A program made the translations under genes and the position numbers. DNA of 34,779 nucleotides, from NCBI GenBank assembly GCA_051382305.1, contig JBBCAV010000187.1, positions 1-34,779 on the forward strand, read 5' to 3'. Numbering within the stretch: position 1 is the stretch's first letter; each line of letters starts with the position of its first letter. The notes under the pieces were generated by a model. That model was not told where the DNA came from and did no database searches. It was given only the letters and a program-made list of their open reading frames with translations. The stretch is from Bdellovibrionota bacterium FG-2. GTDB lineage: Bacteria; Bdellovibrionota; UBA1018. Below are positions 69 through 33,158 of this stretch, one piece after another.

Positions 69-166
69 GGTTATCCTTTCAGACGCTTACGATCGGAGCT
101 CGACACTTTTCAACTGCGGAATGTGGGATAGACAGGACCTATCTATCGTAAAATAACTCCATAGCG

Positions 167-1168
167 CTACTTCCGCCACGCCTGAACCGCGCCCGGCAGC
201 GCCTTAAACACAGCACCGCAAGTCGCTTTCGGCTCGGGTTGATCTCCATCGATTTCAAACAAAGGAAACGAAAGGTCACCCCCCCCCGTTCGCATGATCT
301 CAAAGTTCGACCCCTGGATGTGATGAATCCCCGGAACTCCCTTCAAATAGCCCTGCATAAGCAACGGCAAACTGCGGGCAATCGCAAGCGGTGAGAGCGG
401 CTCTACAAGAACCAGATTCAAAAGCCCGTCATCAATCGTAGCTTTTGAATCCCAACAAACGCCGCCCCCGTGATAACGACCGTTGAGGACGAACCCCGCA
501 AGCACTTTACCCTCAAAAAAATCTGCCCCATCCACTCGCACTTTCATGGGTAAAGAAGAATACTCTTTGATCCCCATCAGCGTCTGAATGGCATAAGCCA
601 AACCCGTTTGATTCAGCATCCGATCCCAATCGCTTCGCGCGCGATGGACGCGATCCACAACCAAGCCCCCGTAAGCAAAACTCACGACATTGGCGACGTA
701 CCGGGAACCCACCGAAGCACCCTCACTTGAGCGAAATTCCATTTCAGCGACATCGCAAGATTTTTCACGCCCCTTGCGAATCAAAGAGATCGCGGCCTGC
801 CAACCGGCATCGCTGCCAAAGAATCGCTCGCCCACCAAAGTCTTTAAGAAATCATCCCCACGCCCTGCGGGCAACACAATCAAACATGCCGCAGAGTTGA
901 TGACCGTCTTATTCTCAAAAAAGCCTTGAAGCGCCTCAGAAATCGTCCCGTCGCCTCCGACCACCACCACTTTCGTGACCCCGCTCTTCAAACCTTCGCG
1001 CACAATGCCTTCACCGTGATCTTCCGGGTTTGTCATCTTAACATCAATAGAGCAGCCATGAAACTTTGAACCCAAGAGCGCTAGCACAATCCCTTTTTGT
1101 TTTTCCCAGCGTGACTGCATTTCCCCGTGACGAGCCATGGGATTTACTAAGACTAATATTTTTTCCAT
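167..1168 (-). CDS. Diacylglycerol-kinase-family (YegS/DagK/BmrU-like) lipid kinase
   Basis: N-terminal LVNPMA, GGDGT ATP-binding motif, LPAGRGDDF (cf. PxGTGNDF), NGRYHGGG and EIDGD; ATG 1168 preceded by GGAGA. Confidence 0.9.
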   Translation of the reverse strand: MEKILVLVNPMARHGEMQSRWEKQKGIVLALLGSKFHGCSIDVKMTNPEDHGEGIVREGLKSGVTKVVVVGGDGTISEALQGFFENKTVINSAACLIVLPAGRGDDFLKTLVGERFFGSDAGWQAAISLIRKGREKSCDVAEMEFRSSEGASVGSRYVANVVSFAYGGLVVDRVHRARSDWDRMLNQTGLAYAIQTLMGIKEYSSLPMKVRVDGADFFEGKVLAGFVLNGRYHGGGVCWDSKATIDDGLLNLVLVEPLSPLAIARSLPLLMQGYLKGVPGIHHIQGSNFEIMRTGGGDLSFPLFEIDGDQPEPKATCGAVFKALPGAVQAWRK

Positions 1169-1170
1169 TT

Positions 1171-2103
1171 TCAATTCTCCCCTAAAGATACAACCGACAC
1201 ATCCCCACCCAAACTCTGCTTAAAATGCTCCGCACATCGCTGACTCATGCACAACACCCCGTCGACGCGATGCCTATCCCGCCCCCAAAAATCTTTGGCC
1301 ATTGTTTTGGCCTGCTCAGGATGGAGATAGCGAAAAGCCCCCTCCCCCCCGCAGTCAATGCAATCTCGCCCATGTGCAAAGGGCAGCACAAGCTGCACCC
1401 CCGCCCGCTGCGCGCGCTCAACCCAGTCCGCGACCTCTGCAAAACGTGACAAACGCCGCGACAGCCATACAGATTCATGGACTAGCCAGCGCTTGCCTTC
1501 ACATTTTTTAAGTAAAGCAGAAAAATTTTCCTCGCGAAAGACAGCCTCATAACGAAGCTCCGCCTGAACCCCAGATTGCTTCAAAAAAGACTGCTCACGC
1601 GGCTCTTCTACAATCACCGATTGCGCTCCCGCCACAAACGCCTGACGCTTGCGCGTCGACTGCTCCTTCAGCCCCAATTCATCAAGCAGATCCCCCACGC
1701 GATCCAGCTTTTCAATCTGCGGCAAAACGCGCTCGACACCCGACCACGAATACTGTGCGCGCGCTTCAAACAATCGATCCGCAACCGGCATCTCATACTT
1801 ACAATATTCCGCGCAACGACCACAGCCCGTACAATCAAAAATCGGCCAGGGTTCAGCGCCTGAAAAACCGCGCCCCGGCCAGCGCTTTTCTTTGTAGAGC
1901 AAAGCCATCTTATTCGACGGCGTCACCGCATCGTTTCCACTGGCGACCGCAGTCGGGCACGCGAAACGACACATCTCCGGACAATACACGCACGCGATGT
2001 CCGGATGCACCTCTCCCTTAGGAAACTGAAGAAGCGTCCGATTCAGAAGTTGCTTAGAGGCCCATTTTAGAGGGGTTGAAACGATTTTCGGGATCAAGGG
2101 CAC
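1171..2103 (-). CDS. Fe-S binding protein (GlpC/GlcF/Hdr-like) with two 4Fe-4S motifs and a degenerate CCG domain
   Basis: CVYCPEMCRFACP and CTGCGRCAEYC motifs; C-terminal DCIDCGGEG and CMSQRC resemble a CCG domain; start codon uncertain. Confidence 0.8.
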   Translation of the reverse strand: MPLIPKIVSTPLKWASKQLLNRTLLQFPKGEVHPDIACVYCPEMCRFACPTAVASGNDAVTPSNKMALLYKEKRWPGRGFSGAEPWPIFDCTGCGRCAEYCKYEMPVADRLFEARAQYSWSGVERVLPQIEKLDRVGDLLDELGLKEQSTRKRQAFVAGAQSVIVEEPREQSFLKQSGVQAELRYEAVFREENFSALLKKCEGKRWLVHESVWLSRRLSRFAEVADWVERAQRAGVQLVLPFAHGRDCIDCGGEGAFRYLHPEQAKTMAKDFWGRDRHRVDGVLCMSQRCAEHFKQSLGGDVSVVSLGEN

Positions 2104-3511
2104 GCTTCACTTTCTCAAAAACTTGAATCCAGGCTCCCTTTTCGCGGCGAAGCCACAGATTTTTTAAGGTTCCTACTCCATGATGATGACTTAAGGTCGC
2201 GCCCGAGGCGAGCGCGGATTTCAAAAGATTCTCCCAAATCACGTCATATCGATCCACGGCACTTTCAAAAGGCCCCGCATGACTCACCAGCGTGAAATAG
2301 ACATTCGCGCCGGTGTGATAAAAATGACTAAAATGCGCGAGCAAAATCCCCATTCCTACGGAGGTCGCTTTTACATTTTTGTACAGGTCTTCAATGCGAT
2401 CCCAGGTCGCCGCTACTTCAAAGGTATCTAAGATCATTCGATTGTGACTCAAAATAAGCTGCTGCTTATAGGACACATCATAACGATGCGCCCACCAATG
2501 CTCACCCAGTGCGGGACCAAAATCCTTCACTTCAAGCTGGCAAGCAATCTCACGTACCTCTTCAGCCTCGGCTTCGACGATACGTTTGGTTCCCTCGAAC
2601 ACGGCCACAATCGCGACATTTCCCGAAAATTCGCACGCCTTTTTCGCATCCGAGGACAGGGTCAAAGACGTTTCGGAGGGATCCAATATTCTCAAAACCG
2701 CCGGCCGCGTCCCACGTTGCATGAGGGTTCGTGTAAACTCCAACGCCTGAGGAACACTGGCAGCCCCAAAACCCATAAACACGCGCGCTTCGGGTAGCGG
2801 CTGGATTTGTAGGCATGCGGCCGTGAAAAAGCCCAACGTGCCTTCGGAGCCCATCAAAAGCTGCGTCCAGTCAGGCCCCATCGCGCTCCGGGGTGCCCGG
2901 CCTGTCTCGGCAATCGTGCCGTCGGGGAGAACAAATTCCACAGCCAGCACCATGTCTTCGATTTTACCGTATTTGGTCGAAAGTTGCCCCGCCGAGCGGG
3001 TCGCAAGATAACCTCCCAAGGAACTGCAATAAATTGATGAAGGAAAATGCCCTAGCGTAAACCCCTCTTGGTTTAGGGCCCGCTCCAAATTCTCGCCAAT
3101 CCATCCAGCTTCGGCCCAAACAGTCATGGACTTGCGATCCAGAGAGCGAATCTTGCGCATTTTCTTAAGATCGACCACGATGCGCTTGCGGTGCTTCTGC
3201 CCCTGAGCTTCACCTGACCGCTGACCGCCTCTTTGATTTTCAGGCGTCGGAATCGTCGCCCCAAGCACTCCAGAACCAGCCCCATAAGGATACAGCTCTG
3301 CGTCATTTTCAGGCTCACGCGCCCAAGCAATGATCTTCGCTACTTCTTGCGCAGTTTCAGGCCAAAAAACCTGATCGACAGTGGGATGCGCCAAAGGGCC
3401 GTTTTCGCGAAGCTCAAGCAATTTTCTGGGCCACAAATCCTGCGAATAGGCCTGAAGGACTAAAGGATCTTTAGAAGTCTGAATAGATGTATGAACTGTA
3501 ACACTTGGCAT
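2054..3511 (-). CDS. FAD-binding oxidoreductase (VAO/PCMH fold), alkyl-dihydroxyacetone-phosphate-synthase-like
   Basis: PYGAGSGV, GHFPSSIYCSSLGGYLATRSAGQLSTKYGKIEDMV, GPDW..LLMGSEGTLG, PAVLRILD, GANVYF, LSHHHGVG and DPENRFNPSK. Confidence 0.85.
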   Translation of the reverse strand: MPSVTVHTSIQTSKDPLVLQAYSQDLWPRKLLELRENGPLAHPTVDQVFWPETAQEVAKIIAWAREPENDAELYPYGAGSGVLGATIPTPENQRGGQRSGEAQGQKHRKRIVVDLKKMRKIRSLDRKSMTVWAEAGWIGENLERALNQEGFTLGHFPSSIYCSSLGGYLATRSAGQLSTKYGKIEDMVLAVEFVLPDGTIAETGRAPRSAMGPDWTQLLMGSEGTLGFFTAACLQIQPLPEARVFMGFGAASVPQALEFTRTLMQRGTRPAVLRILDPSETSLTLSSDAKKACEFSGNVAIVAVFEGTKRIVEAEAEEVREIACQLEVKDFGPALGEHWWAHRYDVSYKQQLILSHNRMILDTFEVAATWDRIEDLYKNVKATSVGMGILLAHFSHFYHTGANVYFTLVSHAGPFESAVDRYDVIWENLLKSALASGATLSHHHGVGTLKNLWLRREKGAWIQVFEKVKRALDPENRFNPSKMGL

Positions 3512-3655: not shown

Positions 3656-3684
3656 TTGACTTTACTCATTCGATTGAGTAAAAT
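3656..3684 (+). promoter_or_regulatory. Sigma70-type promoter containing a 22-bp palindrome
   Basis: TTGACT (3656-3661), 17-nt spacer, TAAAAT (3679-3684); TTTACTCA-TTCGAT-TGAGTAAA at 3661-3682. Confidence 0.75.
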
Positions 3685-3695
3685 ATATCAATAGA

Positions 3696-4898
3696 ATGAG
3701 CAAAATCGCAACAACATATAATAACACAGTAAATCGCACAATCCAGACCGATATTTTGTCCGTTAGGCTCGCTGAAAAACGACGATTTATTCAAATTTTG
3801 CAAGGACCAAGACAAGTTGGAAAAACCACTCTGGCACACCAAGTTGTTGATCGGCTCAAACTCAACGCACACTTCGAATCCGCTGACGACAAGCAGCTTC
3901 AAGGCAGAGCATGGATTTATGAACAGTGGCAAATTGCTCGTACGCTAAACAAACAGGTCTTAGTGCTTGACGAGATTCAAAAAATCAAAGGGTGGTCAGA
4001 AACTGTAAAACTACTTTGGGATGAAGATGCTCGAGCGCAAAGACCCTTACACGTTGTACTCCTAGGCTCCTCCGCACTCATGATTGGAGATGGACTGACC
4101 GAAAGTCTAGCAGGGCGAATCGAAATCATTCGAGTGCCCCATTGGTCTTATCCCGAAATGCACAGCGCATTTGGAACCCACATTGATGAATTTATATTTT
4201 TTGGAGGATATCCGGGCACCGCCGGACTGTTCAACGATTTCCCGCGCTGGCGCAGAATGGTCCTCGACGCACTCATTGAGACGACAATCTCACGCGACAT
4301 TCTTCTGCACGCCTCCATTGAAAAGCCAGCGCTCCTTCGCCACCTATTTCAACTGACGTGTGAGTTCTCCTCACAAATTCTGTCATACCAAAAAATGATC
4401 GGACAACTCCAAGACGTAGGCAACACCACCACGCTTGCACATTATCTTCGCCTACTCGAAGGGGCAGGTCTATGCAAAGGCCTGCAAAAATATGAAGGGA
4501 AAAAGCATCGCCTTCGTTCGTCGATCCCAAAACTACAAGTCTTTAATACGGCGCTCATCTCCGCCCAAAACAGCATGTCGCTCATTGAAGCCAAAACTGA
4601 CCCAGGCTACTGGGGACGCCTCACCGAAAGTGCCGTTGGCGCCCATCTCCTGAACCAAGCGATCGTCGAAGGATTCGAAGTGCTCTACTGGCGCGAAGGA
4701 AATTTTGAAGTCGACTTTGTGATCGACAATGGGATTAAGCCTCTCGCTTTCGAAGTCAAAAGTGAACGAAAACCCAACGCTCTGCCCGGAATGACAAAGT
4801 TCCTATCCCGATACCCTACCGCCAAGCCCTATCTTATTGGGAGTGGCGGAATGTCCTTTGAAGATTTTTTCGCTACACCGCTTAAGGACTTCTTCTAG
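3696..4898 (+). CDS. AAA+ ATPase (AAA_14) with DUF4143 / PD-(D/E)xK-like C-terminus
   Basis: Walker A GPRQVGKT, Walker B LVLDEIQ, LLGSS, ESLAGR, GGYP, C-terminal YWR...EVDFV...FEVK. Confidence 0.9.
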   Translation: MSKIATTYNNTVNRTIQTDILSVRLAEKRRFIQILQGPRQVGKTTLAHQVVDRLKLNAHFESADDKQLQGRAWIYEQWQIARTLNKQVLVLDEIQKIKGWSETVKLLWDEDARAQRPLHVVLLGSSALMIGDGLTESLAGRIEIIRVPHWSYPEMHSAFGTHIDEFIFFGGYPGTAGLFNDFPRWRRMVLDALIETTISRDILLHASIEKPALLRHLFQLTCEFSSQILSYQKMIGQLQDVGNTTTLAHYLRLLEGAGLCKGLQKYEGKKHRLRSSIPKLQVFNTALISAQNSMSLIEAKTDPGYWGRLTESAVGAHLLNQAIVEGFEVLYWREGNFEVDFVIDNGIKPLAFEVKSERKPNALPGMTKFLSRYPTAKPYLIGSGGMSFEDFFATPLKDFF

Positions 4899-6783: not shown

Positions 6784-7734
6784 TTAAGTTGACAGGGCTT
6801 CGCTCTGACTCTCCCCGAACTCGAGCTTCACCAAAAGTCCGATCGAGAACAAAAAGAAAATCCCGCTGAAAGCCTGGATGTTGGTCGTCTTTCCACCAAA
6901 GAAGAAAATCGGAACAAACACGCCCGCTAGCGGATAAAGTAGCTCGATAAAAGTCACAAGGCTCGCCGGAAGTTTTCGAAGCCCATAATAATAAAGGGTC
7001 ATCCCACCCACGCCCGCCACCGAGCCAAGGTAAAGTGAGGAGAGCCACACTTCGCGCGAAGCCAGGACACCCCAAGGCACAGACTCGCCACTCAAGAAAA
7101 ACCAGCCCAACATGAACCCACTCGCCATCAACCAGCGGCCAAACACTACGACTTCGGGTCGGTGCCGAAAAAGCAGCGCCTTACCCGCGACGGTCGAAAA
7201 GCCCCACAAGACGACGGCCATCGCGCCGCTCAAAATTCCAGGCCCCGAAAATCCGAGTTCTTCGCCCATCATTTGACCTAGAAGCCCAGGAAATCCAATC
7301 AAAAAAGCATTCATGACGGCCCAAAGGGCGATGAGCACAAAACTCGAAGAGTGCTTTTCTCTTAAGAACATCCGAGCAAATACTAAAACAAATAACGGCT
7401 GGACCATCTGAAAAACGGTCGCCCGATCAGGGCCGATAGTCCGCATGCTGTAGGTAAACGCGAGCCCCCCCAGTGCGGAGCCCCCCACCCCTACCACGAG
7501 TAAGAGAAGCACTACCCGAGGACGAAACAACTTCGAAATTTCCGGCCGCCGTTTCACGAGCACAAAAGGAGTGATAAGCGCAAGCCCCACGAGGTGCTCC
7601 ATCAAGACGACAAGTTTGAAATCAAGCTCAACAGTCGAAGGATAGCGCACGAGGGTGTCCGTGGCCCAAAGCAACGCTGCGCCTGCAACCAAAAATGCGG
7701 CAAGGAGGCTTTTCTTTTTGCGAGGAACCGGCAC
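6784..7734 (-). CDS. DMT/EamA family transporter
   Basis: About ten hydrophobic segments in two repeats; QPLFVLVFARMFLREK and YYGLRKLPAS..TFIEL; GTG start overlaps the upstream TAG. Confidence 0.9.
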   Translation of the reverse strand: MPVPRKKKSLLAAFLVAGAALLWATDTLVRYPSTVELDFKLVVLMEHLVGLALITPFVLVKRRPEISKLFRPRVVLLLLVVGVGGSALGGLAFTYSMRTIGPDRATVFQMVQPLFVLVFARMFLREKHSSSFVLIALWAVMNAFLIGFPGLLGQMMGEELGFSGPGILSGAMAVVLWGFSTVAGKALLFRHRPEVVVFGRWLMASGFMLGWFFLSGESVPWGVLASREVWLSSLYLGSVAGVGGMTLYYYGLRKLPASLVTFIELLYPLAGVFVPIFFFGGKTTNIQAFSGIFFLFSIGLLVKLEFGESQSEALST

Positions 7735-8273
7735 TACATCACGCTACAGCTTAGCGATTCAATCGGATTGTGTTTACGGGTGATCGTAAGCTTCATCATC
7801 CCATTCTTAATGTCGGTAACCAAGGCCGGCTCGCCGGCTTTCAAAGCGAGCTTGAGATAAAACATCGTTCCGCCTGAACGCGCCGCCGCTCCAATTAAAA
7901 TGCAATCATCGAGCTGCTCCATCAAACGCAAGGTTTCGGGATCAAATTTCGCAAGCTCATTGGTATCTGTTACGTTAAGCGAAAGAAAAACCATGTTATC
8001 TTGAGGTTTGGTGCCTGCGATGCCGCCGTTACCGATAAACTTCTCGCCAGCAGAATACTGAGGGGTACCATGCCCGTTGAAAGTATAAGACTCAACGCCA
8101 CTTTGGTACTCACGCGTAAAAATAACATCATCAGAAGTCAGATATGGAATATTGACCCGATCAACTTTATTGGCGTCCGCTTTACTCTTACCCATCGCAA
8201 ATGAACTCGTTGTGCATACACAAACCAAGATCACCAAACCGCAAACTCTTAAGCCCGCATTCAACACTTTCAT
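7734..8273 (-). CDS. Secreted hypothetical protein
   Basis: Signal peptide ending SSFA; SD AAGGAG; coupled to the DMT gene. Confidence 0.7.
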   Translation of the reverse strand: MKVLNAGLRVCGLVILVCVCTTSSFAMGKSKADANKVDRVNIPYLTSDDVIFTREYQSGVESYTFNGHGTPQYSAGEKFIGNGGIAGTKPQDNMVFLSLNVTDTNELAKFDPETLRLMEQLDDCILIGAAARSGGTMFYLKLALKAGEPALVTDIKNGMMKLTITRKHNPIESLSCSVM

Positions 8274-8348
8274 TTATTACTCCTTTGGAAAATTGAGACC
8301 CGAAATTTGACGCATTGCTATCACGTAAAGTCACGCAGCGTCAACAGC

Positions 8349-8909
8349 CTATTTCATCGCTTTTTGAATCAGTTCCAAAGTGTACGCGCTCTTCCAATCC
8401 TCAGCGCCCGACCACTTTTTTACGATGTGAAGTTCACGATCCAATAAATAGGTTTCAGGAAACTGAGTCGTTCCAAACTTGCGTGATACTTCGCTCGTCA
8501 TATCGATCAATGAAACGAGACCTTCAGGAATAGATTTTTCTGGAAGAAGCTTATGGGCTAACGCCCACTCTTCGTCGACTGTGATCGCCACAAATTTCAC
8601 AGGCTTTCCCTTGAAAGCACTGACCAGCGCAAGCCACTTTGGCAGCTCCACCTGACAAGGAGGGCACCAGCTTGCCCAAAAATGGACCACTGTTGCGGTT
8701 CCCTTGAAATCTTTAAGATGAAAAGCCTTGCCCTTAAAGTCCTTGAGTTCAAAAGCCGGAGCCAAAGAAACCCGAGAAACAGCGACCTGCTCCTTAAGGC
8801 TATACCCCCCGGGAGGAGTGGTCGAGGTAGGCGTACAAGAGCTCAACACCCCGGAAAAGGCTATAATTTTGAAAAAACACCCCAACGGCTTAAATCGGCT
8901 CTCAATCAT
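8349..8909 (-). CDS. TlpA/ResA-family thiol-disulfide reductase lipoprotein
   Basis: Lipobox LSSC, APAFEL, HFWASWCPPC, FPETYLLD. Confidence 0.9.
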   Translation of the reverse strand: MIESRFKPLGCFFKIIAFSGVLSSCTPTSTTPPGGYSLKEQVAVSRVSLAPAFELKDFKGKAFHLKDFKGTATVVHFWASWCPPCQVELPKWLALVSAFKGKPVKFVAITVDEEWALAHKLLPEKSIPEGLVSLIDMTSEVSRKFGTTQFPETYLLDRELHIVKKWSGAEDWKSAYTLELIQKAMK

Positions 8910-8998
8910 TTCAATACCTTACCTATTACAATGGAAAAACTTGATCAAGTCTTTTACGAGAGTTGCATGTTTACCCCATTTACTGAAATAATAAGAGT

Positions 8999-9538
8999 AT
9001 GGGCCACGCCCTTGTGCTGAACGCCTCCTATGAGCCGCTCCACATCGTAACCTGGCAACGGGCGATTCAGCTATTATTTCAGGGAAAAGTTGAAGTCATT
9101 GAAGAATATGACCGGGAGATCCGTACCGTTCGGTTGAGCATCAAAATGCCCGCAGTGCTGCGGCTGCTAAATTACATTCCAACCGCCAAGAAGAAACACA
9201 TCGTTCGCTTTTCTCGAGCGAACATTTTTGTGCGCGACAAACACGTTTGCCAGTACTGCGGCGGAAGCCCCGGCAAGAACCATCTCACGCTGGATCATGT
9301 GATTCCCGTGGTGCAAGGCGGACGTAAATGTTGGGAGAATATTGTGACGGCCTGCAAGCCCTGTAATCAAAAAAAGGGCGGAAAAACCCCCGCTCAAGCC
9401 GGAATGGAACTTCGCGGCAAACCGCAACGTCCAAGTTGGCTGCCCACCAGCATCCTGCAAGTTGAAGTCACGCGCAGCCCCGAGCGCTGGCGCATCTATT
9501 TTCGGAGCGACCTTGACCCCGATTCAAGTTCGTCCTAG
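8999..9538 (+). CDS. HNH endonuclease (COG1403/McrA-like)
   Basis: LVLNASYEPL, RD...CQYCG, LTLDHVIP..GG..WENIVTAC..CN.KKG. Confidence 0.92.
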   Translation: MGHALVLNASYEPLHIVTWQRAIQLLFQGKVEVIEEYDREIRTVRLSIKMPAVLRLLNYIPTAKKKHIVRFSRANIFVRDKHVCQYCGGSPGKNHLTLDHVIPVVQGGRKCWENIVTACKPCNQKKGGKTPAQAGMELRGKPQRPSWLPTSILQVEVTRSPERWRIYFRSDLDPDSSSS

Positions 9539-9550
9539 CCTTCAATAACA

Positions 9551-10039
9551 ATGGCCACACCGACTCCCTACCTAGACACCCTGCTAGCGAAATATGGAGA
9601 TCTCGTTTTTGATCTCTGTGAAGCCATGCTGGGTAACTCTTCAAATGCGCAGAGAGCCTTTAGAGACATCTTCAAAGCCCTGAGACACGAACAGTCCAAA
9701 ACAAATTTTGTAAAATACGAGCGTCCCTGGGTATTGCGAACCGCCTGGGGAAAACTTGAATCATTGACGGAAAAATATACAAAGCAACTCTCCCCTTCAG
9801 AGCAAATTGAACTCGACTCAAAAGCCGAAGGCGAAGCTCGCATGAAACATTTTGGCCACTATTTTCATCGCCTCTCTCGCCCCGATCAGTTTCTCTTACT
9901 TTTGCGCGAAAAGCATAAACTACCCTATTCTGAAATCGCTGCAATTCTCCACGCGCCCGAGGACTCAATCAAAATTCAACGTCAGCACGCCCTTCGAACC
10001 CTTGAGGAGTGGCTGTGGGTTATTCCTAAAGGACTTTAA
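9551..10039 (+). CDS. ECF-type sigma-70 factor, divergent
   Basis: Region-2-like N-terminus (LLAKYGDLVF..MLGN..A..F, WVLR) and region-4 HTH (L...R...LPYSEIAAIL); adjacent anti-sigma. Confidence 0.7.
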   Translation: MATPTPYLDTLLAKYGDLVFDLCEAMLGNSSNAQRAFRDIFKALRHEQSKTNFVKYERPWVLRTAWGKLESLTEKYTKQLSPSEQIELDSKAEGEARMKHFGHYFHRLSRPDQFLLLLREKHKLPYSEIAAILHAPEDSIKIQRQHALRTLEEWLWVIPKGL

Positions 10040-10043
10040 GATA

Positions 10044-10994
10044 ATGATGGATTGCTTTGAATTTCAGAACAAGTCCTCCGACAATATAGACGCCCTCCTC
10101 GCGCCTCTGGATCAGGCACGAGCAATGGAGCATCTTGATGCCTGTGAGAGCTGCCAAGCCAAAATCAACCACTATCAAATCCTCTTAGACGCAATCGCGA
10201 ATCTTCCCAAGGTGCCACTTCCTGAGCCCCTTCGGAAGGCTCCTTTTTCAGGCCCCCTGCCCCGACTCGATATAAGCGGGGGCGAAAAGAACCGATGGGA
10301 GAGATTGCCCTGGTATCTGCGTTCTTTAATTGAAGGGGTAGGAACTATTGTCCTGGTCTTAATTGGAATCTCGGCCGGACCCAAACTACGATCCCTTTAT
10401 GAAAGACAAACTGAGCATAATCTCAGTGAGTACAACGAACCTATTTCAGCACTCACCGCGCCTACCTCGACCGAATCCGGCGAAACATCTGAATCCTCCG
10501 AAGCCGCGCTCCAACGCGGAAAAATCCTCCCAAATGCGGCCGCCCCCAAAAATGAAGCGAGTTCAGAAGAGGCCGAGGAAAACGCCTATGAGGGTGACAG
10601 CGAAGGCGCTTCTGTCGAGGCGGGGGGCAATCAAGAAGACACCGGCTCCGACATTCGCGTCGGCAACTCTGAGATTTGGCGTTTTAGTCTCAAAACTGAT
10701 AACCCGCGCGAGGTACGCGAAAAAGTCGTCAAAATTCTCGGCGACTTGAAAGTGCCACGAAATACTCCCGGTTTTGGGGGAGTGGAGGCCCCCGGAGGAA
10801 TCCAATTTGATTTGCTCGTTCCGCAATCAGTGATTCCAAATCTAAAAAACCAACTGCAAAAACTTGCGCCCACGGCCTCCAAAGAACTCGCAAAATCAAC
10901 CATGGGTGAAACCTTCACTTGGTACAAAAATAAATCAAAAAAACCAATGCCCGCACGAACCTCTCGCATCGTAATTTGGTTGTCGCAGTTTTAG
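10044..10994 (+). CDS. Zinc-finger (ZAS) anti-sigma factor, single TM, extracytoplasmic C-terminal domain
   Basis: HxxxCxxC (HLDACESC) plus an N-terminal Cys; hydrophobic segment TIVLVLIGISAG; ATG just after the sigma stop, so the ORF-track start at 9852 is unlikely. Confidence 0.75.
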   Translation: MMDCFEFQNKSSDNIDALLAPLDQARAMEHLDACESCQAKINHYQILLDAIANLPKVPLPEPLRKAPFSGPLPRLDISGGEKNRWERLPWYLRSLIEGVGTIVLVLIGISAGPKLRSLYERQTEHNLSEYNEPISALTAPTSTESGETSESSEAALQRGKILPNAAAPKNEASSEEAEENAYEGDSEGASVEAGGNQEDTGSDIRVGNSEIWRFSLKTDNPREVREKVVKILGDLKVPRNTPGFGGVEAPGGIQFDLLVPQSVIPNLKNQLQKLAPTASKELAKSTMGETFTWYKNKSKKPMPARTSRIVIWLSQF

Positions 10995-11006
10995 GGCCCG
11001 CCCAGA

Positions 11007-12191
11007 TTAGGGCTGCTCGAGATCTTTGATCGCATCTTGAATACCTTCGGGCGAAAAATAAAATGAATCCGAACTCCCTGGCTTACTCGATTTCACTTCG
11101 CCGTTCCAGCCCTTGATTTGTTCTTTGCCGGTCGCGGGGATCCGAGCCGGAGGAGCTGATCCGAGAGTTGGCTTCGCAACGACAGGTTTTGCGTCGTTCA
11201 TTTGATCAATAATGACTTTTCGGGCGTGCAAAAAAATCTCTTTCTGCTGGAGGGTCAAAGCGTCATCTAACTTAGGGGGCAGTCCTCCAGGAAGGGGCGC
11301 GCTCTTCTTCATTTCCTCAAACTCTTTTTGAAAAACCGCGTAAGCCGCCACATACTTCTGCTTGGCGACCTCATACTGGGGATCGATTTTGGGTTTTCCA
11401 TTGGCATCCAACTCTGGAACCATAAATTTCCCCGCAGCAGGGTTCGAGGGATCTCTGGCAATCTCCTTAAATTTTATATATTCATCCGGAGAAGGCTCAC
11501 GCGGAATCGAATCCAGCCACTTGCTATAGGCTGAAGTCACCATCGTGCGCGTACGCTCATAATCTTTTTGGAGATCATCCAGTGTTGCGACATAGGGGAG
11601 CTGACCCTTCTTGTCTGGTTCGTTAGGTTCTTTTATTCGCTCAAAGAGAGGCGAAATTTTATCACCAACCGGCCCTTTGCCAGGTACGTTCTTGCGATTC
11701 GACAACAGAGCGGCGGCCTCTCCATTTTTGCCAATCGAAAAACCCATTTTTCTCAAACTTTGAAGCCCCACAAACATGAAACGGTTACGACAAGAATCGC
11801 GGTCGTCTTGAGGAAGGCAAAAATTTCCAATCACTTTTTCCAAGGCGGCCTGGGTTTTCGCCTGTTTTGCGGCATCCAGGGTATAGACCAGTTGGAGCGC
11901 CTGAAGTGACATGTTCTCCGTTGCTTTGTCGTATAAACAGGTTTGACCACAGTCTTCGAACTTCGAATCTTGCCAGGGAAACTTCTTGCCTCGCGATGAA
12001 GAAGTTGAAGGGGAGCCGGGCTTTGCTGGCGCCCCAGTTTGCGCCCCGGGCTGCGAAAGGTTACCCGTCGATCCTCCCTGCGCGCGCGGCGCCGCTTGTG
12101 GCGTCACAGGCGACGAAAGATCAGGGTCGCTAGCCCAAGCGCCGTTTGAAAGGCATAATGATAAGAGCAGTATCCCCGGAGAAAGGTTCAT
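11007..12191 (-). CDS. Secreted hypothetical protein
   Basis: Signal peptide MNLSPGILLLSLCLSNGAWA, Pro/Gly/Ser-rich N-terminus, paired cysteines; about 394 aa. Confidence 0.7.
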   Translation of the reverse strand: MNLSPGILLLSLCLSNGAWASDPDLSSPVTPQAAPRAQGGSTGNLSQPGAQTGAPAKPGSPSTSSSRGKKFPWQDSKFEDCGQTCLYDKATENMSLQALQLVYTLDAAKQAKTQAALEKVIGNFCLPQDDRDSCRNRFMFVGLQSLRKMGFSIGKNGEAAALLSNRKNVPGKGPVGDKISPLFERIKEPNEPDKKGQLPYVATLDDLQKDYERTRTMVTSAYSKWLDSIPREPSPDEYIKFKEIARDPSNPAAGKFMVPELDANGKPKIDPQYEVAKQKYVAAYAVFQKEFEEMKKSAPLPGGLPPKLDDALTLQQKEIFLHARKVIIDQMNDAKPVVAKPTLGSAPPARIPATGKEQIKGWNGEVKSSKPGSSDSFYFSPEGIQDAIKDLEQP

Positions 12192-12295
12192 TACCCTATA
12201 TATTTTAGAATACCTGACAAACAAAGTACAGCAAGATAATTAAGACCTTTACGCATATTTAAATAGCAATTTCAAACACTTAAATATCTGTGCCA

Positions 12296-13018: not shown

Positions 13019-13855
13019 ATGAAAAGAAATCTACTGACGATCCTCGCCGCTACCTCTCTGCTCTCACTCTCTCAAGGCGCGCTAAGCGCTAAACCCCCCG
13101 CCACAACAACGATGAAAGCCGGAGACCTTGGGCTCTTCGACCGAGTCAGCGTGGGATACTTCGGAATTTATCATGGCAACTCTCTCACCGACCCCAGCTC
13201 CCCCTATGGATTGGATCGAAACGGCAAAGTCAGCACGAAACTTAACATCAATCTCGATGGAACCCTTTCTGCAGCCTACAATCTCGATTCACAACTGAGT
13301 ATGGGTCCCGAAGTTCCCTTCATTCTTGTTCCTGTGCTTGGCAAAGGCGCAATCATGGGCGACGTGGGATTCAATGTTTCGCATAAAAATACGATCAACG
13401 CCCAAGGCTTCAAACTTTCTAATAGCCTTGGCCTCCAACTCCCCACCAGCCAATCATCACAGGATCGCAAGATGAGCATGGCGATAAAACTCGACCCAAG
13501 CATGCGATATGAATTTGCAAAAACTGGCTTCTCGCTGGGAAATTTCAGCGAACTCAAGACTTACCTGGGCGTCACCCGCGATAAGTCCTTCAAGATTTGG
13601 ACGCTGCCTTACGCGAGCTATCAACTAACCCAAAGTGTCTCCCTGAATCTTGCTTACGAAATGGAATGGCAGCACTTCGTCAATACGCCCAATACGCAGT
13701 TTTCGACTTACCAAATGGATCTCCAGCCGGGGCTAAACGTGAACATCACGAAGAATTTATTCTTCAACCCTTACCTTCAGATTTTCACAACCCAATCTGA
13801 TGTGAATACCGATAAGATGGCTCTAGGTGCAGTAATCAGCGCGAAACTGCTTTAG
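13019..13855 (+). CDS. Probable outer-membrane beta-barrel protein
   Basis: SD AAGGAG, signal peptide, many alternating hydrophobic/aromatic strands (e.g. PYASYQLT, SLNLAYEME, PGLNVNIT). Confidence 0.65.
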   Translation: MKRNLLTILAATSLLSLSQGALSAKPPATTTMKAGDLGLFDRVSVGYFGIYHGNSLTDPSSPYGLDRNGKVSTKLNINLDGTLSAAYNLDSQLSMGPEVPFILVPVLGKGAIMGDVGFNVSHKNTINAQGFKLSNSLGLQLPTSQSSQDRKMSMAIKLDPSMRYEFAKTGFSLGNFSELKTYLGVTRDKSFKIWTLPYASYQLTQSVSLNLAYEMEWQHFVNTPNTQFSTYQMDLQPGLNVNITKNLFFNPYLQIFTTQSDVNTDKMALGAVISAKLL

Positions 13856-15075
13856 GCTTTGGCCTTACCCGCTAAGGGACCATGCTGCTTTTCTAGAAGC
13901 TCATAGCGGTTGATCACGCCGCGCACATACTGACGCTTCTCGGCGTAGGTCCCCGGGAAAAAGCTTCGTTTAAAGCCGTAAACCAAAAGGTCCTTGAGTG
14001 CTTCGCCCTTCAAGTTAAACGCATCCATCGCCAGCAGGATCTCTTTAGTGACAGAGGTCTTGCTCACCGTGCGATTATCTGTGCAGATGGTCGTGCTGAG
14101 TTTGGCATCCAGCATTTTGCGAAACTGATGGTTCTCAATGCGACCAATCGAGGGGTTGGTCTGCAAATTACTGGTCAAGCATACTTCAATCGTGATCCTG
14201 CGCTCGGCAATATATTGCGCCAAACGCTCGATATAGGTGGCGGGATTTTTGATCTCAGGAGCCGAAACCTTGTTCGTATCAAAAAGATAATACCCATGCC
14301 CAATGCGATCGGCATAGAGATCCGTGATCGCTTGAAAAATACTCTCCGGACCGTAGGCTTCGCCGGCGTGAACGGTAAGATGCAAGAAGTGTTTATGCGC
14401 ATACTTATAGGCGGCGACATGATCTTCAGCTGGATGCCCGGCTTCAGCGCCAGCCAAATCAAAACCCACGACCGGCAACCCAAAACGATCACGCGTTGCA
14501 ACAGAGGCCTTAGCAAGTTCCAGGGAAGCCAAACCGTGCACAGTTGGATTATCTGAATACTTGTGGGCTTCTAAGAAAGTATCAAAATACTCAGAGAATC
14601 CCTTACCAAAAGCGCGCATCGCGCAGACGATGATCCCATAGTGAAACGCGGGGACTTCACCTGATCGAACTTCAGGCCGGGCATTATATTCTTGCTTGGC
14701 GCGATCCATTCCATTAGTGACGCTTTTTAGAATCGACTCGATATCTTGATTGCGATTAACGTGAAACTGAGGCGCAAAGCGCGCCTCCACATAGCACACG
14801 CCTTCATTGATATTATCTTGCGCAAATTCGTAACTCACCCGCTCGATGTTCTCAGGGGTCTGCATCGCGGCGATGCTCACTCCAAAACATTGCAGATACT
14901 CCCCCAGATCAGCGTACTGATCCCGAAACAAGAGCTTATCCAACCCATCCTCGGTGTACGAAGGAAGCGTAATCTTCTCCTTCTTAGCGATATCAATGAT
15001 TGTTCCAGGCCTTAGCGACCCATCAAGATGAACGTGAAGATCACATTTCGGAATCGCGCGGATAAACTCTTCCAT
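13852..15075 (-). CDS. add: Adenosine deaminase family protein
   Basis: PKCDLHVHLDGSLR, YVEARFAP, GFDLAGAE, TVHAGE, RIGHG, EVCLTSN, CTDNR; ATG overlaps the upstream TAA (TAATG). Confidence 0.9.
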   Translation of the reverse strand: MEEFIRAIPKCDLHVHLDGSLRPGTIIDIAKKEKITLPSYTEDGLDKLLFRDQYADLGEYLQCFGVSIAAMQTPENIERVSYEFAQDNINEGVCYVEARFAPQFHVNRNQDIESILKSVTNGMDRAKQEYNARPEVRSGEVPAFHYGIIVCAMRAFGKGFSEYFDTFLEAHKYSDNPTVHGLASLELAKASVATRDRFGLPVVGFDLAGAEAGHPAEDHVAAYKYAHKHFLHLTVHAGEAYGPESIFQAITDLYADRIGHGYYLFDTNKVSAPEIKNPATYIERLAQYIAERRITIEVCLTSNLQTNPSIGRIENHQFRKMLDAKLSTTICTDNRTVSKTSVTKEILLAMDAFNLKGEALKDLLVYGFKRSFFPGTYAEKRQYVRGVINRYELLEKQHGPLAGKAKA

Positions 15076-16931
15076 TAGATCCACCCCTTCGCCGTTGCCA
15101 AGGCAACGACAATTCCCATCAGAGATTCACCGGCAATGATACCGGAGCTGACGGGGATTACATATTTCTCAGCAAGTTTTGGAACCTTCTTTTCCATAAT
15201 GAGCGCAATCAACGCGCCGATAAACATCGACAGCGAGTTGTAAAACGGAATCACCATGGAAAGTCCAAGCCCCGTTGCTGAAGGAATATACTTCTTCGCC
15301 TTAGGGAAAAACAACTCTAGAAGAGGGAGAATCATTCCGACGAGCAGCCCCATAAATAGCCCCATTCGAGCGGCAGGGTGAAGCGCGTAAAAGCCATTGG
15401 CAAGCAGCCTTGCTACAGCCGTCCAAACCTGGGCGGCAGGCGCGGGCCAGCGATCGGTACCCAGGGACGCCGCATCTGGAACGAGCAAGTAGAAAGCAGG
15501 AACAACAATAAGCACTCCGCCAAAAATCCCCAAGTACTGTGCGATGAATTGTTTGCGCGGGTTGGCGCCCAAAATATAGCCACTCTTTAGGTCGGTTAAC
15601 AAATCAGCCGAAGCGCCGGCCGCACCAGCCGTCACGCTCGCAGTCATCAGATTCGTAATCACATTAGTCGGAGCCAAAATCCCGAAGGTCAGCTGCGTGA
15701 TTTTTCCCATCGCGCCAATTGGAGTGGTATCCGTCTCACCTGTCGCGCGACAGGCGACGAGCGAGAGGAAAAACGTCATCAAGATCGCCAGAATGCCCAT
15801 CCAGATCGAAGTCCCAAATGAAACATACAAAACGGTGATACACCCCAAGCCCGAGAGAATTGTCCCAATCGCAAACCAAGAAGCAGGCACTTCAATACGA
15901 TCCATCGGATTGACTTCGTGAACACCGACACTCTTCTTGATCGCTCCGTAAGCGCGCTTCAACGAGCGCCCGATCACGCGCCACTGCAACGCAAAGCTCA
16001 GCAACCCCGAAGACACCATGATCGAGGCGCCCATCCAAGTGCTCCACTTCATGATCGCGCTATACCCCATCTTTGATGAATCAATGGCCCCAAGCTCCAT
16101 CATCTTAGGAGCTAAAATCGCAAAATTGATAAATCCACCCAGGAGCATCGACCATGCGGCTCTCCACCCCATAATTGCACCTGCGGCGATCATAATTGCG
16201 CTCATGTCAAAACTCAGGGTCCATTTAGCGAGCGGAAAGCCCCCGAGCATGCCTGGAAAATTTAACGAAGCGGGAATCGCAAACGGTTTCCCAGTATCGC
16301 GAAACCAAGTCACCAACACTCCAAATAATCCACCTAGGCCCAGCGAGCGCGCTTTGGACACGGCATCAGGCCCCGTCGCATGTAAACTCCTCAGAGTCTC
16401 AGCACACGCCACTCCGCTCGGAAAGCGAAGTTGCTCGACATTGATCATCTGACGTTTCATGGGGATCGCCAAAAACACTCCCAAAGAGGCCAAAAAGAAA
16501 GTCCACCAGCCCAACACAACCCAGGGGATATGGTGCCCCGTAATAATGAGATACGATGAAATCGCCGAAACCATCGTCCCCCCCGTAGAGGAGCCCGCCG
16601 AAGTTGCGGTCGACTGCATACAGTTGTTTTCTAGAATGCTCATCTCGGTTTTAAACCAGCGCGGAAACGCAGTACGAAGCGTCTTAGAGATGGCATACGA
16701 AAGAATGCAGGAAGTAATCGCAACACCCAATCCCCATCCCGTCTTCAAACCAATATAAAGGTTTGAAAGCGACATGATGCCGCCCAAGAAGACCCCCATA
16801 ACGATCGCTCTTAATGTGAGCTGAGGCATGGTATCGCCCTGATAAACAGTCTCAAACCAATGACGTTCGATCTGTTCCGGCGTTTGAGTTTCAGCCGTCG
16901 TAGTAGCAGTAGTTGTCGTATTCATGGTCAT
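15075..16931 (-). CDS. OPT (YSL-type) oligopeptide transporter
   Basis: QLTLRA, NLYIGLKTGW, ILENN, LRFPSG.A.AETL, DLKSGY.LGANPR.Q, SGIIAGESL; ATGA overlap with the POT stop. Confidence 0.92.
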   Translation of the reverse strand: MTMNTTTTATTTAETQTPEQIERHWFETVYQGDTMPQLTLRAIVMGVFLGGIMSLSNLYIGLKTGWGLGVAITSCILSYAISKTLRTAFPRWFKTEMSILENNCMQSTATSAGSSTGGTMVSAISSYLIITGHHIPWVVLGWWTFFLASLGVFLAIPMKRQMINVEQLRFPSGVACAETLRSLHATGPDAVSKARSLGLGGLFGVLVTWFRDTGKPFAIPASLNFPGMLGGFPLAKWTLSFDMSAIMIAAGAIMGWRAAWSMLLGGFINFAILAPKMMELGAIDSSKMGYSAIMKWSTWMGASIMVSSGLLSFALQWRVIGRSLKRAYGAIKKSVGVHEVNPMDRIEVPASWFAIGTILSGLGCITVLYVSFGTSIWMGILAILMTFFLSLVACRATGETDTTPIGAMGKITQLTFGILAPTNVITNLMTASVTAGAAGASADLLTDLKSGYILGANPRKQFIAQYLGIFGGVLIVVPAFYLLVPDAASLGTDRWPAPAAQVWTAVARLLANGFYALHPAARMGLFMGLLVGMILPLLELFFPKAKKYIPSATGLGLSMVIPFYNSLSMFIGALIALIMEKKVPKLAEKYVIPVSSGIIAGESLMGIVVALATAKGWI

Positions 16932-18364
16932 GTTGAATGGCTCCCCATCGCTTTTTTCAGAGGTTTCGAAAACGCCCACATCGCGAAGCCTGTGCCCACG
17001 CCCAGCGCCGTGAGGAACCAGAAGAATCCGGCCGCAGTCATGATCTTTTGTTCGTAGAGCAACCCGATATAACCCGACAAGATATTGCCGAAGAAGCTAG
17101 AGAGAAACCACATCCCCATCATGAGCGACACGATTCGTGCAGGAGAAACTTTCGTCACTAGTGATAACCCAATCGGAGAGAGATAAAGCTCTCCAACAGT
17201 AAGCAGCAAGGTACAGAAAACGGGCCAGAACCAACTTCCCTTGCCCGTGCCAACAATCCCCGCGCCCACGACCATGACGATGAACGATAAGCCCAAAATA
17301 AGAGAGCCAATGGCCATCTTGGAAACGCTCGAGGGAGCCTTGTTTCTCTGGGCCTGCCACATCCAAAGCATATCGCAAAGAGGTGCCAACATGAAAATAA
17401 AGAGAGGGTTAAAGGACTGAAACCACGTCGAAGGTACTTGGAAACCCATGATAATGGGCCAGGTGGTGTTTTCATCCGCCCAGGTTTGCATGGTGTTGCC
17501 TTGCTGTTCGTAAACAGCCCAAAACACGACGTTGAGCATACACAGTCCCACAAGAGCCAAAATTCGTTTCTTTTCGCCCTGATCCAACTTTTGCTTGGGT
17601 TCGATCTTAGCCGCAGCTCTCGTGACGGTCAGATTATCGGAAGCCAGATATTTTTGTCCCAGAGCATAAATCACAAGCCCGCAGACCATTCCGATTCCAG
17701 CAGCGCCGAAGCCGTAATGCCAGCCGAGGGTGGCCGCTAGAGTTCCGCACACGAGATTGCAAATGAAAGCGCCGAGATTGATTCCCATGTAAAAGATGGT
17801 GAACGCGCCGTCACGTCGTGGGTCATCGGCAGCATAAAGGTTTCCAACCTGGGTTGAAATATTGGGTTTGAAAGCCCCATTACCGATAATCAAAAATAGA
17901 AGTGCGACAAAAAACCAATTTTCGAAGGCCATGGTGAAGTGACCGATAGCCATCAAAGCGCCACCTAAGAACACCGTTTTGCGCTGTCCCCAGTAACGAT
18001 CAGCGATGTAACCGCCCAAGAACGGGGTCAAGTAGACCAAGCCTGTGTACCAACCATAGACAACCGAAGCATACGCACCAGGAACGGTATTAGGATCTGA
18101 ACTAATGAGATTGCGAATCGTCTCCCAACCAAAAACGAGGGCGGGATTACCAGCGCCGCGATCCGTTCCGCCTTGAAGGATTTGGCGAGACGCAACGAAG
18201 AGGTAATTCACCATATAGAGCTTTAAAAGCCCGCGCATTCCGTAATAGGAGAAGCGCTCCCACATTTCGGTGAAAAATAGGACAAAAAGACCAACGGGGT
18301 GTCCTAAGAATGTTTTGTTACTGATAGGGGCATTCATGGTCACGGAAGCTGTTTGTGTAGTCAT
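16928..18364 (-). CDS. POT/PTR family proton-dependent di/tripeptide MFS transporter
   Basis: GHP.GL..LFFTEMWERFSYYGMR, GGYIADRYWG, FKPNIS, FYMGINLG, FQSFNP, GEL.LSP.GLS. Confidence 0.95.
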   Translation of the reverse strand: MTTQTASVTMNAPISNKTFLGHPVGLFVLFFTEMWERFSYYGMRGLLKLYMVNYLFVASRQILQGGTDRGAGNPALVFGWETIRNLISSDPNTVPGAYASVVYGWYTGLVYLTPFLGGYIADRYWGQRKTVFLGGALMAIGHFTMAFENWFFVALLFLIIGNGAFKPNISTQVGNLYAADDPRRDGAFTIFYMGINLGAFICNLVCGTLAATLGWHYGFGAAGIGMVCGLVIYALGQKYLASDNLTVTRAAAKIEPKQKLDQGEKKRILALVGLCMLNVVFWAVYEQQGNTMQTWADENTTWPIIMGFQVPSTWFQSFNPLFIFMLAPLCDMLWMWQAQRNKAPSSVSKMAIGSLILGLSFIVMVVGAGIVGTGKGSWFWPVFCTLLLTVGELYLSPIGLSLVTKVSPARIVSLMMGMWFLSSFFGNILSGYIGLLYEQKIMTAAGFFWFLTALGVGTGFAMWAFSKPLKKAMGSHST

Positions 18365-18408
18365 TAAAAAGATCTAACCCGAAGCGGCGGAGAATCAAAA
18401 TTATTTAT

Positions 18409-18435
18409 GCCGCAGGCAACCAGTTTAGTCAGATG
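18409..18435 (+). repeat. 27-bp direct repeat, copy 1
   Basis: GCCGCAGGCAAC-CAG-TTTAGTCAGATG; 24/27 identical to 21228-21254. Confidence 0.9.
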
Positions 18436-18461
18436 AATCAGTTCCGGCTCACCGTCGGCGC

Positions 18462-21148: not shown

Positions 21149-21227
21149 TCCAACTTAACTATCGGAATTTTGGAGGTGGTATATTAGGGATTTCCGTAAA
21201 ACCCGTCTATATCGTTGCGCTTATTGC

Positions 21228-21254
21228 GCCGCAGGCAACTGTTTTAGTCAGATG
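21228..21254 (+). repeat. 27-bp direct repeat, copy 2
   Basis: GCCGCAGGCAAC-TGT-TTTAGTCAGATG. Confidence 0.9.
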
Positions 21255-21289
21255 GGCCCCAACTTACCCAAGAAATTCACCCCATAATC

Positions 21290-21337
21290 TTGACGCTTAG
21301 CTTAAGCAGCCCTATCATAAGGAACTTTTAGAAGGAG
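21290..21337 (+). promoter_or_regulatory. Sigma70 promoter and RBS of the M3 peptidase gene
   Basis: TTGACG (21290-21295), 17 nt, TATCAT (21313-21318); AAGGAG at 21332-21337. Confidence 0.7.
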
Positions 21338-21343
21338 CCTCAC

Positions 21344-23449: not shown

Positions 23450-23455
23450 GCCCGC

Positions 23456-23756: not shown

Positions 23757-23762
23757 AATTGT

Positions 23763-23791: not shown

Positions 23792-23823
23792 GTATAGATG
23801 TCTAAATGCGGGTTAACCCCTTT

Positions 23824-33155: not shown

Positions 33156-33158
33156 GGG

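Follow-up and report, generated by a model that had tools for sequence, protein, structure and literature searches.

The window analysed here, the whole 34,779-nucleotide contig JBBCAV010000187.1 of Bdellovibrionota bacterium FG-2, carries on its minus strand, at 167-3511, an operon of three co-oriented and overlapping genes that encode, in this order, a flavoprotein, an iron-sulfur (Fe-S) protein and a kinase of a lipid-kinase family. By sequence and modelled fold the flavoprotein resembles alkyldihydroxyacetonephosphate synthase (AGPS or ADPS; EC 2.5.1.26), the textbook case of a flavoenzyme whose ether-forming reaction involves no net redox change and needs no electron partner. To our knowledge, AGPS has been described in hardly any organisms other than eukaryotes and myxobacteria. 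The FG-2 protein appears to belong to a large prokaryotic branch of the AGPS family, seemingly uncharacterised in the literature searched. We tentatively propose that the flavoprotein and the Fe-S protein together act on the 1-substituted glycerol-phosphate product of the adjacent kinase, in the salvage or breakdown of glycerolipids or ether lipids rather than in their de novo synthesis, a proposal to which we give slightly less than an even chance.

The flavoprotein (485 amino acids; gene at 2054..3511, minus strand; Pfam FAD_binding_4 and FAD-oxidase_C) is a member of the VAO/PCMH family. An initial annotation of this DNA, made from the letters alone, had aligned it by eye with mammalian AGPS. 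Indeed, the motifs it quoted (PAVLRILD, GANVYF, SHHHGVG and GHFPSS..SSLGGY..YGKIED) all lie within the 485-residue translation, and both they and the three overlapping, co-oriented genes were confirmed in the open reading frame (ORF) listing and its translations. In a phmmer search of Protein Data Bank (PDB) sequences the top match was Dictyostelium ADPS (2uuu; 1.6e-57, 198 bits), followed by Cavia AGPS (4bby; 1.7e-47) and then by mouse D-lactate dehydrogenase (D-LDH; 4.8e-26, 95 bits). Foldseek, run with an AF2 model built from 51 homologues (pLDDT 88.1, pTM 0.88), returned AGPS/ADPS chains at all of ranks 1-37 (TMq 0.87, 26-27% identity), versus a TMq of ~0.75 for D-LDH, and the NCBIfam GlcD model TIGR00387 scored 155.9 bits against a cut-off of 567.9. 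Two ordinary GlcD-like paralogues are present elsewhere in the source metagenome-assembled genome (MAG). AGPS-like sequences split from such paralogues with support 100 in both trees that we built, one with FastTree (101 proteins) and one with IQ-TREE (a quick run under a PMSF mixture model, 64 proteins).

The active-site residues are likewise those of AGPS. A HMMER alignment reproduced the alignment made by eye: Arg274 (2690..2692, minus strand) matches the ADPS Arg (Dictyostelium R352, Cavia R419), Tyr405 (2297..2299, minus) the catalytic Tyr (Y508 and Y578, respectively) and His442-His443-His444 of SHHHGVG (2180..2188, minus) the HHH loop of both enzymes, which we take to be catalytic. Among 85 Fe-S-linked relatives the Arg is conserved in 85, the Tyr in 83 and the three His in 81, 78 and 83; the Arg274 column is also Arg in 75/75 proteins of a sister AGPS-like group, clade X, described below. 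In six GlcD-like paralogues of the same genomes these columns hold E, H and [G/A]-E-H. PDB entry titles name the AGPS mutants Arg419His and Tyr578Phe, and a figure legend in the review PMC3509576 singles out R352, Y508 and R447 as residues that matter to Dictyostelium ADPS. The flavoprotein further shares with AGPS the GHxPxS...KYGxIED segment. Because ADPS is its best match by sequence and fold, because Arg, Tyr and HHH are kept, and because it separates from GlcD-like paralogues, we consider the protein AGPS-like and not GlcD- or D-LDH-like on sequence and model grounds, as the initial annotation had argued. In many cases homologues carry the automatic Joint Genome Institute (JGI) name 'alkyldihydroxyacetonephosphate synthase'.

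The flavoprotein nevertheless differs from AGPS in several ways. At the column of Dictyostelium R447 the window has Gln350, an assignment that depends on how this variable loop is aligned. Arg occupies that column in 0/85 Fe-S-linked relatives, but in all 75 clade X proteins examined and in E. coli YgcU; Gln350 is part of the loop 344-356 (YDVSYKQQLILSH; 2444..2482, minus). The match to ADPS starts at Dictyostelium residue 139 with the single sequence, or 89 with the family profile, and at Cavia residue 160; with the profile, the first ~88 residues of Dictyostelium ADPS and the first 160 of Cavia ADPS have no counterpart. The available text of PMC3509576 describes a domain found only in ADPS, whose helix gates the lipid channel or substrate access. 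The partner genes differ too. In M. xanthus the putative AGPS MXAN_1676 is encoded with a FAR-GNPAT fusion and an NAD-dependent epimerase and is genetically implicated in ether-lipid formation, according to the accessible part of the preprint (bioRxiv 10.1101/2025.10.10.681575). Like the window, that operon combines a bacterial AGPS homologue with two further genes, but, as far as this source goes, these are wholly different from ours, the window's family having an Fe-S partner and a kinase instead of FAR/GNPAT and occurring also in Archaea. We saw no FAR or GNPAT gene beside the flavoprotein gene in the 79 + 4 + 9 neighbourhoods scanned. Nor did we find a protein with FAR-GNPAT neighbours in four genomes, in 41 genomes of the order of a myxobacterial MAG or in the clade X profile search, among whose 80 listed loci M. 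xanthus does not occur. The source MAG is 85% complete, so that genes missing from it may still exist in the organism; it gave no strong FAR-type match, the best PF07993 hit scoring 48.8 bits in a family that also matches in 14/14 control genomes. PF10520 (the CarF/PEDS1 family) matched neither in this genome nor in any control genome and is hence uninformative. Since the second Arg, the ADPS N-terminal part and the FAR/GNPAT neighbours are absent and an Fe-S partner is present, the flavoprotein is, to judge from these features, not a canonical AGPS.

The Fe-S protein (310 amino acids, GTG start; gene at 1171..2103, minus strand; Pfam Fer4_8) is encoded with a 50-nucleotide overlap with the flavoprotein gene, found at the same offset in the window's close relatives. 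It consists of a ferredoxin-type 2x[4Fe-4S] domain and a degenerate remnant of one CCG domain. In an alignment of 35 bacterial and archaeal sequences the first cluster motif, CVYCPEMCRFACP (Cys38, 41, 45 and 49; 1954..1992, minus), is invariant; in the second, CTGCGRCAEYCK (Cys91, 94, 97 and 101; 1798..1833, minus), C91, C94 and C101 are invariant and C97 is conserved in at least 90%. The label 'GlpC-like' given to this protein in the initial annotation fits its relatives outside the window's lineage, which have Fer4_8 and two CCG domains as in GlpC, GlcF and HdrD and match the GlpC, GlcF, LdhH and TfrB models weakly, with NCBIfam scores far below the cut-offs. It does not fit the window's own lineage, which has lost the first CCG domain and retains the second in degenerate form (HESV for HDPC; DCIDCGG for CCGGGG), and PF02754 (CCG) gave no match on the window's protein. 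In the close relatives L006 and L010 the remaining C-terminal Cys pair is also gone. Compared with GlpC, GlcF and HdrD, the protein thus keeps eight cluster cysteines but lacks intact CCG domains. The profile of the partner family matches HdrB and PDB chain 9ojn_A; the latter, a 1042-residue 'Iron-sulfur-binding reductase', is the best solved relative (2.3e-52, chain residues 407-745).

Structure prediction supports binding of the Fe-S protein to the flavoprotein. The predicted complex scored 0.90 (0.89, 0.90 and 0.90 in individual runs) versus 0.00 for the best control; the partner pLDDT was no lower than 84, and the runs shared at least 64% of their contacts. This mark is reached by 58/80 solved complexes and 2/110 mismatched pairs, counts that hold only approximately here because custom alignments were used. 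In the model, the ferredoxin domain (residues 23-103) contacts flavoprotein residues 13-50, 114-117, 138-148 and 159-162 as well as the loop 344-356 (through 344-345 and 347-356), the same loop that lacks the second Arg of ADPS. The N-terminal segment 13-50 (3362..3475, minus), a predicted docking surface, includes D25, which is invariant in 51 family sequences, and S13 and P43, each conserved in at least 90% of them. We know of no solved complex of an AGPS-like flavoprotein with an Fe-S partner.

The third gene (167..1174, minus strand; Pfam DAGK_cat and YegS_C), which overlaps the Fe-S gene by 4 nucleotides and has an alternative ATG two codons in, at 1168, encodes a 335-residue protein of a soluble lipid-kinase family. 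It resembles the YegS/Rv2252/BmrU/DgkB kinases in its two domains, its GGDGT motif (944-958, minus) and its top PDB matches, which are diacylglycerol (DAG) kinases and BmrU (42.9 bits), with YegS at ~31. It differs from them in falling below every NCBIfam cut-off: the best score was 82 bits versus a cut-off of 284, and on TIGR00147 (YegS/Rv2252/BmrU) it reached 66.8 bits versus 118.65, a mark that the orthologous kinase of locus L061 passes with 155 bits.

The association of these genes is widely conserved. We compared 79 related loci, 28 archaeal and 51 bacterial as split by record-title keywords, and detected partners with hidden Markov models trained on those already identified, since a tblastn search with the diverged Fe-S protein of the window overlooked many, for example at L025. 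The flavoprotein gene has an Fe-S gene on its own strand in 71/79 loci (archaeal 27/28, bacterial 44/51), and in 20/20 archaeal and 37/40 bacterial loci that offer at least 2.5 kb of room; those without a detected Fe-S gene are L011, L028, L046, L047 and four truncated loci. The DAGK-type kinase is present in 31/51 bacterial and 0/28 archaeal loci (28/40 and 0/20 where there is room), and all three genes occur together in 31 of the 51 bacterial loci. In the window's own subclade (L004-L010 and L019) the Fe-S gene is found in 8/8 and the kinase in 7/8, the eighth contig ending 495 nucleotides past the flavoprotein gene. The trio singled out by the initial annotation is thus a conserved neighbourhood.

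Gene order varies around this core. A Bdellovibrionales MAG (L009, 7334-9151, plus strand) has an uninterrupted 605-residue Fe-S-kinase ORF (Fer4_8 at 34-103, DAGK_cat at 278-412, YegS_C at 458-604), which may represent either a genuine fusion or an artefact of assembly. Tandem AGPS-like genes stand ahead of the Fe-S gene at L018 (3770-7416), L028, L031, L035 and L056, with both copies of L031 keeping Arg, Tyr and HHH. At L021, L022, L024, L026 and L045 (Jordarchaeia, Freyarchaeota and Helarchaeota) the Fe-S gene lies ~2.8 kb upstream of the AGPS-like gene, with one gene between.

Other partners recur as well. An FGGY kinase is encoded in 13 loci, 11 of them archaeal, and in none together with a DAGK-type kinase, which suggests that the two are alternatives for one kinase slot. 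GlpA/GlpD/FngA-like flavoprotein genes are found in 25/79 loci. At L037, L040, L041, L050 and L055 such a domain forms one protein with the Fe-S part, and Pyr_redox_2 and DUF1667 genes come next; these proteins of ~940 amino acids (at ~7300-10150, directly after the AGPS-like gene) combine Fer4_8, two CCG domains, BON, a DAO-type glycerol-3-phosphate (G3P)-dehydrogenase-like domain and Fer2_BFD. Their hosts are Syntrophomonadaceae, Methylocystaceae, Solirubrobacterales and Chitinophagales MAGs, and their mutual closeness in spite of such distant hosts hints at horizontal transfer. The DAO+BFD, Pyr_redox_2 and DUF1667 genes beside the FAD/Fe-S pair in Thermoplasmatota and in these five bacterial loci have the architecture of FngABC, a ferredoxin- and NAD-dependent G3P oxidoreductase of Pyrococcus furiosus, as described in the accessible part of PMC13689815, which mentions no AGPS-like neighbour; the window's operon has no such genes. 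We had considered the FGGY neighbours as glycerol kinases and rejected this, as they fall below the GlpK cut-offs and score better on XylB (250-257 bits on XylB, cut-off 380; 159-223 on GlpK). The partner GlpD-like proteins reach 266-283 bits versus a cut-off of 360. By these scores both are paralogues and not canonical glycerol enzymes. The neighbourhoods repeat one logic: an AGPS-like enzyme accompanied by a kinase and by a redox component of either the G3P-dehydrogenase or the Fe-S type. The initial proposal of a kinase, a redox and an AGPS-type step agrees with this wider picture.

Similar arrangements surround other AGPS-like proteins. Clade X (loci L088-L196; Marinobacter, Janthinobacterium, Massilia, Pseudovibrio, Streptomyces and others) belongs to the same AGPS-like superclade as the window's flavoprotein (support 100) and keeps the R, Y and H..H residues. 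In contrast to the window's group, its members have kept the second Arg (75/75) and extend further at the N-terminus. They also score higher on ADPS, with 234-268 bits for single proteins; as profiles, clade X and the Fe-S-linked group reach 437 versus 406 bits on 2uuu. Their partners are a GlpD-like flavoprotein, whose gene comes next downstream in 8 of the 9 loci examined, and an FGGY kinase (6/9), where the window has an Fe-S protein and a DAGK-type kinase. The trio of AGPS-like, GlpD-like and XylB-like FGGY genes can be seen, for example, at 5000-10000 of L127, L120, L135, L147, L132 and L151, all from cultured or named bacteria (Marinobacter, Janthinobacterium, Pseudovibrio, Melioribacter and others), and the literature searched yielded no published function for it. 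E. coli K-12 YgcU, 30% identical to the window's flavoprotein over 388 residues, has R, Y, HHH and the second Arg; IQ-TREE leaves its position unresolved, on a long branch (2.51). Its cluster (ygcNOPQRSUW, yqcE, ygcE) encodes an FGGY kinase, transporters and products recorded as putative flavoproteins or oxidoreductases, which we take to be EtfAB-like and FixC/FixX-like. Another AGPS-like branch thus also lies beside putative electron-carrier genes, although the ygc cluster, unlike the window's operon, has neither a GlpC-like Fe-S protein nor a DAGK-type kinase. The mycobacterial AGPS-like gene Rv2251 presumably lies next to the DAG kinase gene Rv2252. In the literature searched, as far as the sources were accessible, no functional study of ygcU in E. 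coli or of Rv2251 is evident.

These observations lead us to the following tentative scheme for the FG-2 operon. The kinase would phosphorylate the free primary hydroxyl of a 1-substituted glycerol, here a lipid such as a monoalkyl- or monoacyl-glycerol, and the Arg/Tyr/HHH site of the flavoprotein would bind the resulting head group of the glycerol-phosphate or dihydroxyacetone phosphate (DHAP) type. Unlike in AGPS, the flavin adenine dinucleotide (FAD) of the flavoprotein would exchange electrons with the two [4Fe-4S] clusters of its tightly bound partner; the clusters would make possible a net redox step that AGPS lacks. The enzyme might then carry out this step, from the G3P level to the DHAP level, and/or AGPS-type chemistry at C1, in which the substituent is cleaved or exchanged. 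The role of the operon would be the salvage or breakdown of glycerolipids, possibly ether lipids. A more specific and rather unlikely form of this scheme is the O2-independent cleavage and salvage of glyceryl ethers. Here the kinase would make 1-alkyl-G3P from 1-O-alkylglycerol, and the flavin/Fe-S enzyme would oxidise it to alkyl-DHAP, the electrons leaving via the clusters, and then run AGPS chemistry in reverse: a flavin-N5 adduct would form, water or a fatty acid would enter, and fatty alcohol would be released with DHAP or acyl-DHAP. Other 1-substituted glycerols would be handled likewise by the forms with FGGY and GlpD-like partners that occur in archaea, Marinobacter, E. coli and others. 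The only alkylglycerol-cleaving enzyme in the literature searched, as far as its accessible parts show, is animal AGMO, which depends on O2 and tetrahydrobiopterin (PMC7911779, PMC9192799).

Three other explanations have to be weighed against salvage or breakdown. We consider it improbable that the operon serves canonical ether-lipid biosynthesis, in which the flavoprotein would be a true alkyl-DHAP synthase, swapping the acyl group of acyl-DHAP for a fatty alcohol, with the Fe-S protein and the kinase as accessories. The matches to ADPS in sequence and fold, the conserved Arg274, Tyr405 and HHH and the JGI names of many homologues all favour such a function, and some hosts of the family belong to Myxococcota, Thermodesulfobacteriota and Planctomycetota, which are known for non-isoprenoid ether lipids. 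However, the second catalytic Arg is found in none of the 85 relatives, the N-terminal part of ADPS (~88 residues in Dictyostelium, 160 in Cavia) has no counterpart, the neighbourhoods scanned contain no FAR-GNPAT or epimerase genes of the MXAN_1676 type, and the incomplete FG-2 genome offers only the 48.8-bit match to the non-specific PF07993. Moreover, AGPS needs no electron partner, yet the Fe-S gene nearly always adjoins the flavoprotein gene, and the pair is common in Archaea (27/28 loci), where ether lipids are made by a different route. The suggestion of the initial annotation that the operon makes ether lipids is therefore not supported in its canonical sense. Still less probable, in our judgement, is a non-redox AGPS-like enzyme of exchange or remodelling, whose Fe-S protein would be a structural, membrane-docking or redox-sensing subunit. 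Such a role would suit the loss or degeneration of the CCG domains in this lineage, extended in L006 and L010 to the C-terminal Cys pair. It would also suit the predicted interface, which involves the N-terminus of the flavoprotein; the corresponding part of ADPS continues into the gating domain (PMC3509576, in its available part), so that the partner could replace the gate. Against this, the eight cluster cysteines are invariant or nearly so in bacterial and archaeal sequences alike, and five loci encode the Fe-S protein as a fusion with a flavoprotein of the G3P-dehydrogenase type, two observations that argue for electron transfer.

The remaining alternative, somewhat unlikely in our view, is a plain dehydrogenase of the GlcDF or D-LDH type for a small, soluble phosphorylated or hydroxy compound (for instance a glycerol phosphate stereoisomer or a polyol phosphate), alongside a housekeeping lipid kinase linked to it by the operon alone. 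The combination of a VAO-type flavoprotein, sometimes in two copies, with a Fer4_8/CCG protein mirrors GlcD/GlcE/GlcF and is also the subunit logic of Fe-S-linked D-LDH and, with GlpC, of GlpABC. GntR/UTRA regulators, found in 5/51 bacterial loci, and the FGGY kinases, of the sugar type, in archaeal and clade X versions fit it as well, and the operon kinase, the only DAGK_cat gene found in the 85%-complete genome, could serve general lipid recycling. On the other hand, the active site is of the AGPS type, with Tyr for His and HHH for [G/A]-E-H in place of the metal and catalytic residues of 2-hydroxy-acid enzymes, and the NCBIfam glcD score is far below its cut-off. The link to the kinase (31/51 bacterial loci and one fusion) seems too regular to be incidental, and the mutual exclusion of DAGK-type and FGGY kinases, as alternatives for one slot, points the same way.

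Several observations weigh against the salvage or breakdown reading itself. The profile of the Fe-S-linked group (A1) scores 255 bits on mouse D-LDH, compared with 170 bits for the clade X profile, and by this measure a plain dehydrogenase fits as well as our proposal does; the FGGY kinases argue, from their sequence affinities, for a soluble, non-lipid substrate in the archaeal and clade X versions. The loss of the second Arg could reflect a different bound head group. The CCG domains, through which GlpC/HdrD-type proteins usually meet a quinone or disulfide, have been lost or have degenerated in the window's lineage, as read from the sequence, and the clusters could be structural. The complex score expresses the confidence of a model and is not a measurement. 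A GlpA/GlpD-like gene is found neither in the window's operon nor in its 8 closest loci. A single Fe-S-linked clade, which had support 84 with FastTree, was dropped, since the better, mixture-model IQ-TREE tree does not resolve these sequences as one clade; both trees were built from sets without eukaryotic AGPS and without MXAN_1676. Finally, the literature searched contains no functional or experimental study of the Fe-S-linked AGPS-like branch.

The initial annotation had also suggested that the operon might let a predator recycle the lipids of its prey, for which we found no support. A match at E <= 1e-60 occurs in 22 of the 301 genomes sampled from the phylum, that of the window counted in, and in 3/34 of the window's own family. 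Within the phylum the module is accessory and patchy, a poor fit to a general predator trait. A Bdellovibrio-type predator trait was rejected on this distribution. The operon in the window is one more member of the module, with a reduced Fe-S subunit, and not a special predator trait. The wider branch is of more general interest. It spans many bacterial phyla, Asgard archaea and Thermoplasmatota and keeps most of the AGPS active site, and it differs from AGPS in being hard-wired to an Fe-S subunit and set amid kinase and G3P-dehydrogenase paralogues. Solving its reaction would give a role to widespread orphan genes that automatic pipelines mislabel 'alkyldihydroxyacetonephosphate synthase', and would relate AGPS chemistry to ordinary VAO-type dehydrogenation. 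It might also offer insight into the turnover of glyceryl ethers and esters by anaerobes and other microbes, a gap in lipid biogeochemistry.

In the surroundings of the operon, a TG-extended, sigma-70-like promoter match (9/12; 3682..3711, minus strand) lies upstream of the flavoprotein gene and a weak terminator-like hairpin (160..180, minus) at the stop codon of the kinase gene. Both are consensus matches only, such promoter matches numbering 4 in the window versus 2.3 expected in shuffles and such hairpins 11 versus 5.6. The upstream neighbour is a divergent gene for an AAA_14/DUF4143 ATPase, and the contig ends 166 nucleotides downstream of the kinase gene. Elsewhere, an HNH endonuclease gene lies at 8999-9538 (plus strand) and a HipA-like kinase gene at 28615-29943 (minus), and several ORFs of 160-680 amino acids within 9551-12224, 18462-21148 and 26952-28217 have no Pfam match. 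The region 13852-25095 encodes adenosine deaminase, OPT and POT peptide transporters, an M3 peptidase and a NamZ-type exo-N-acetylmuramidase, a set that would suit the use of peptides, nucleosides and cell walls as food. At the far end of the window, a mevalonate-pathway run (30305-34457, minus strand) comprises HMG-CoA reductase (33159-34457), an unassigned 306-residue ORF, an MVD-like diphosphomevalonate decarboxylase (31156-32247) and a GHMP kinase (30305-31195).

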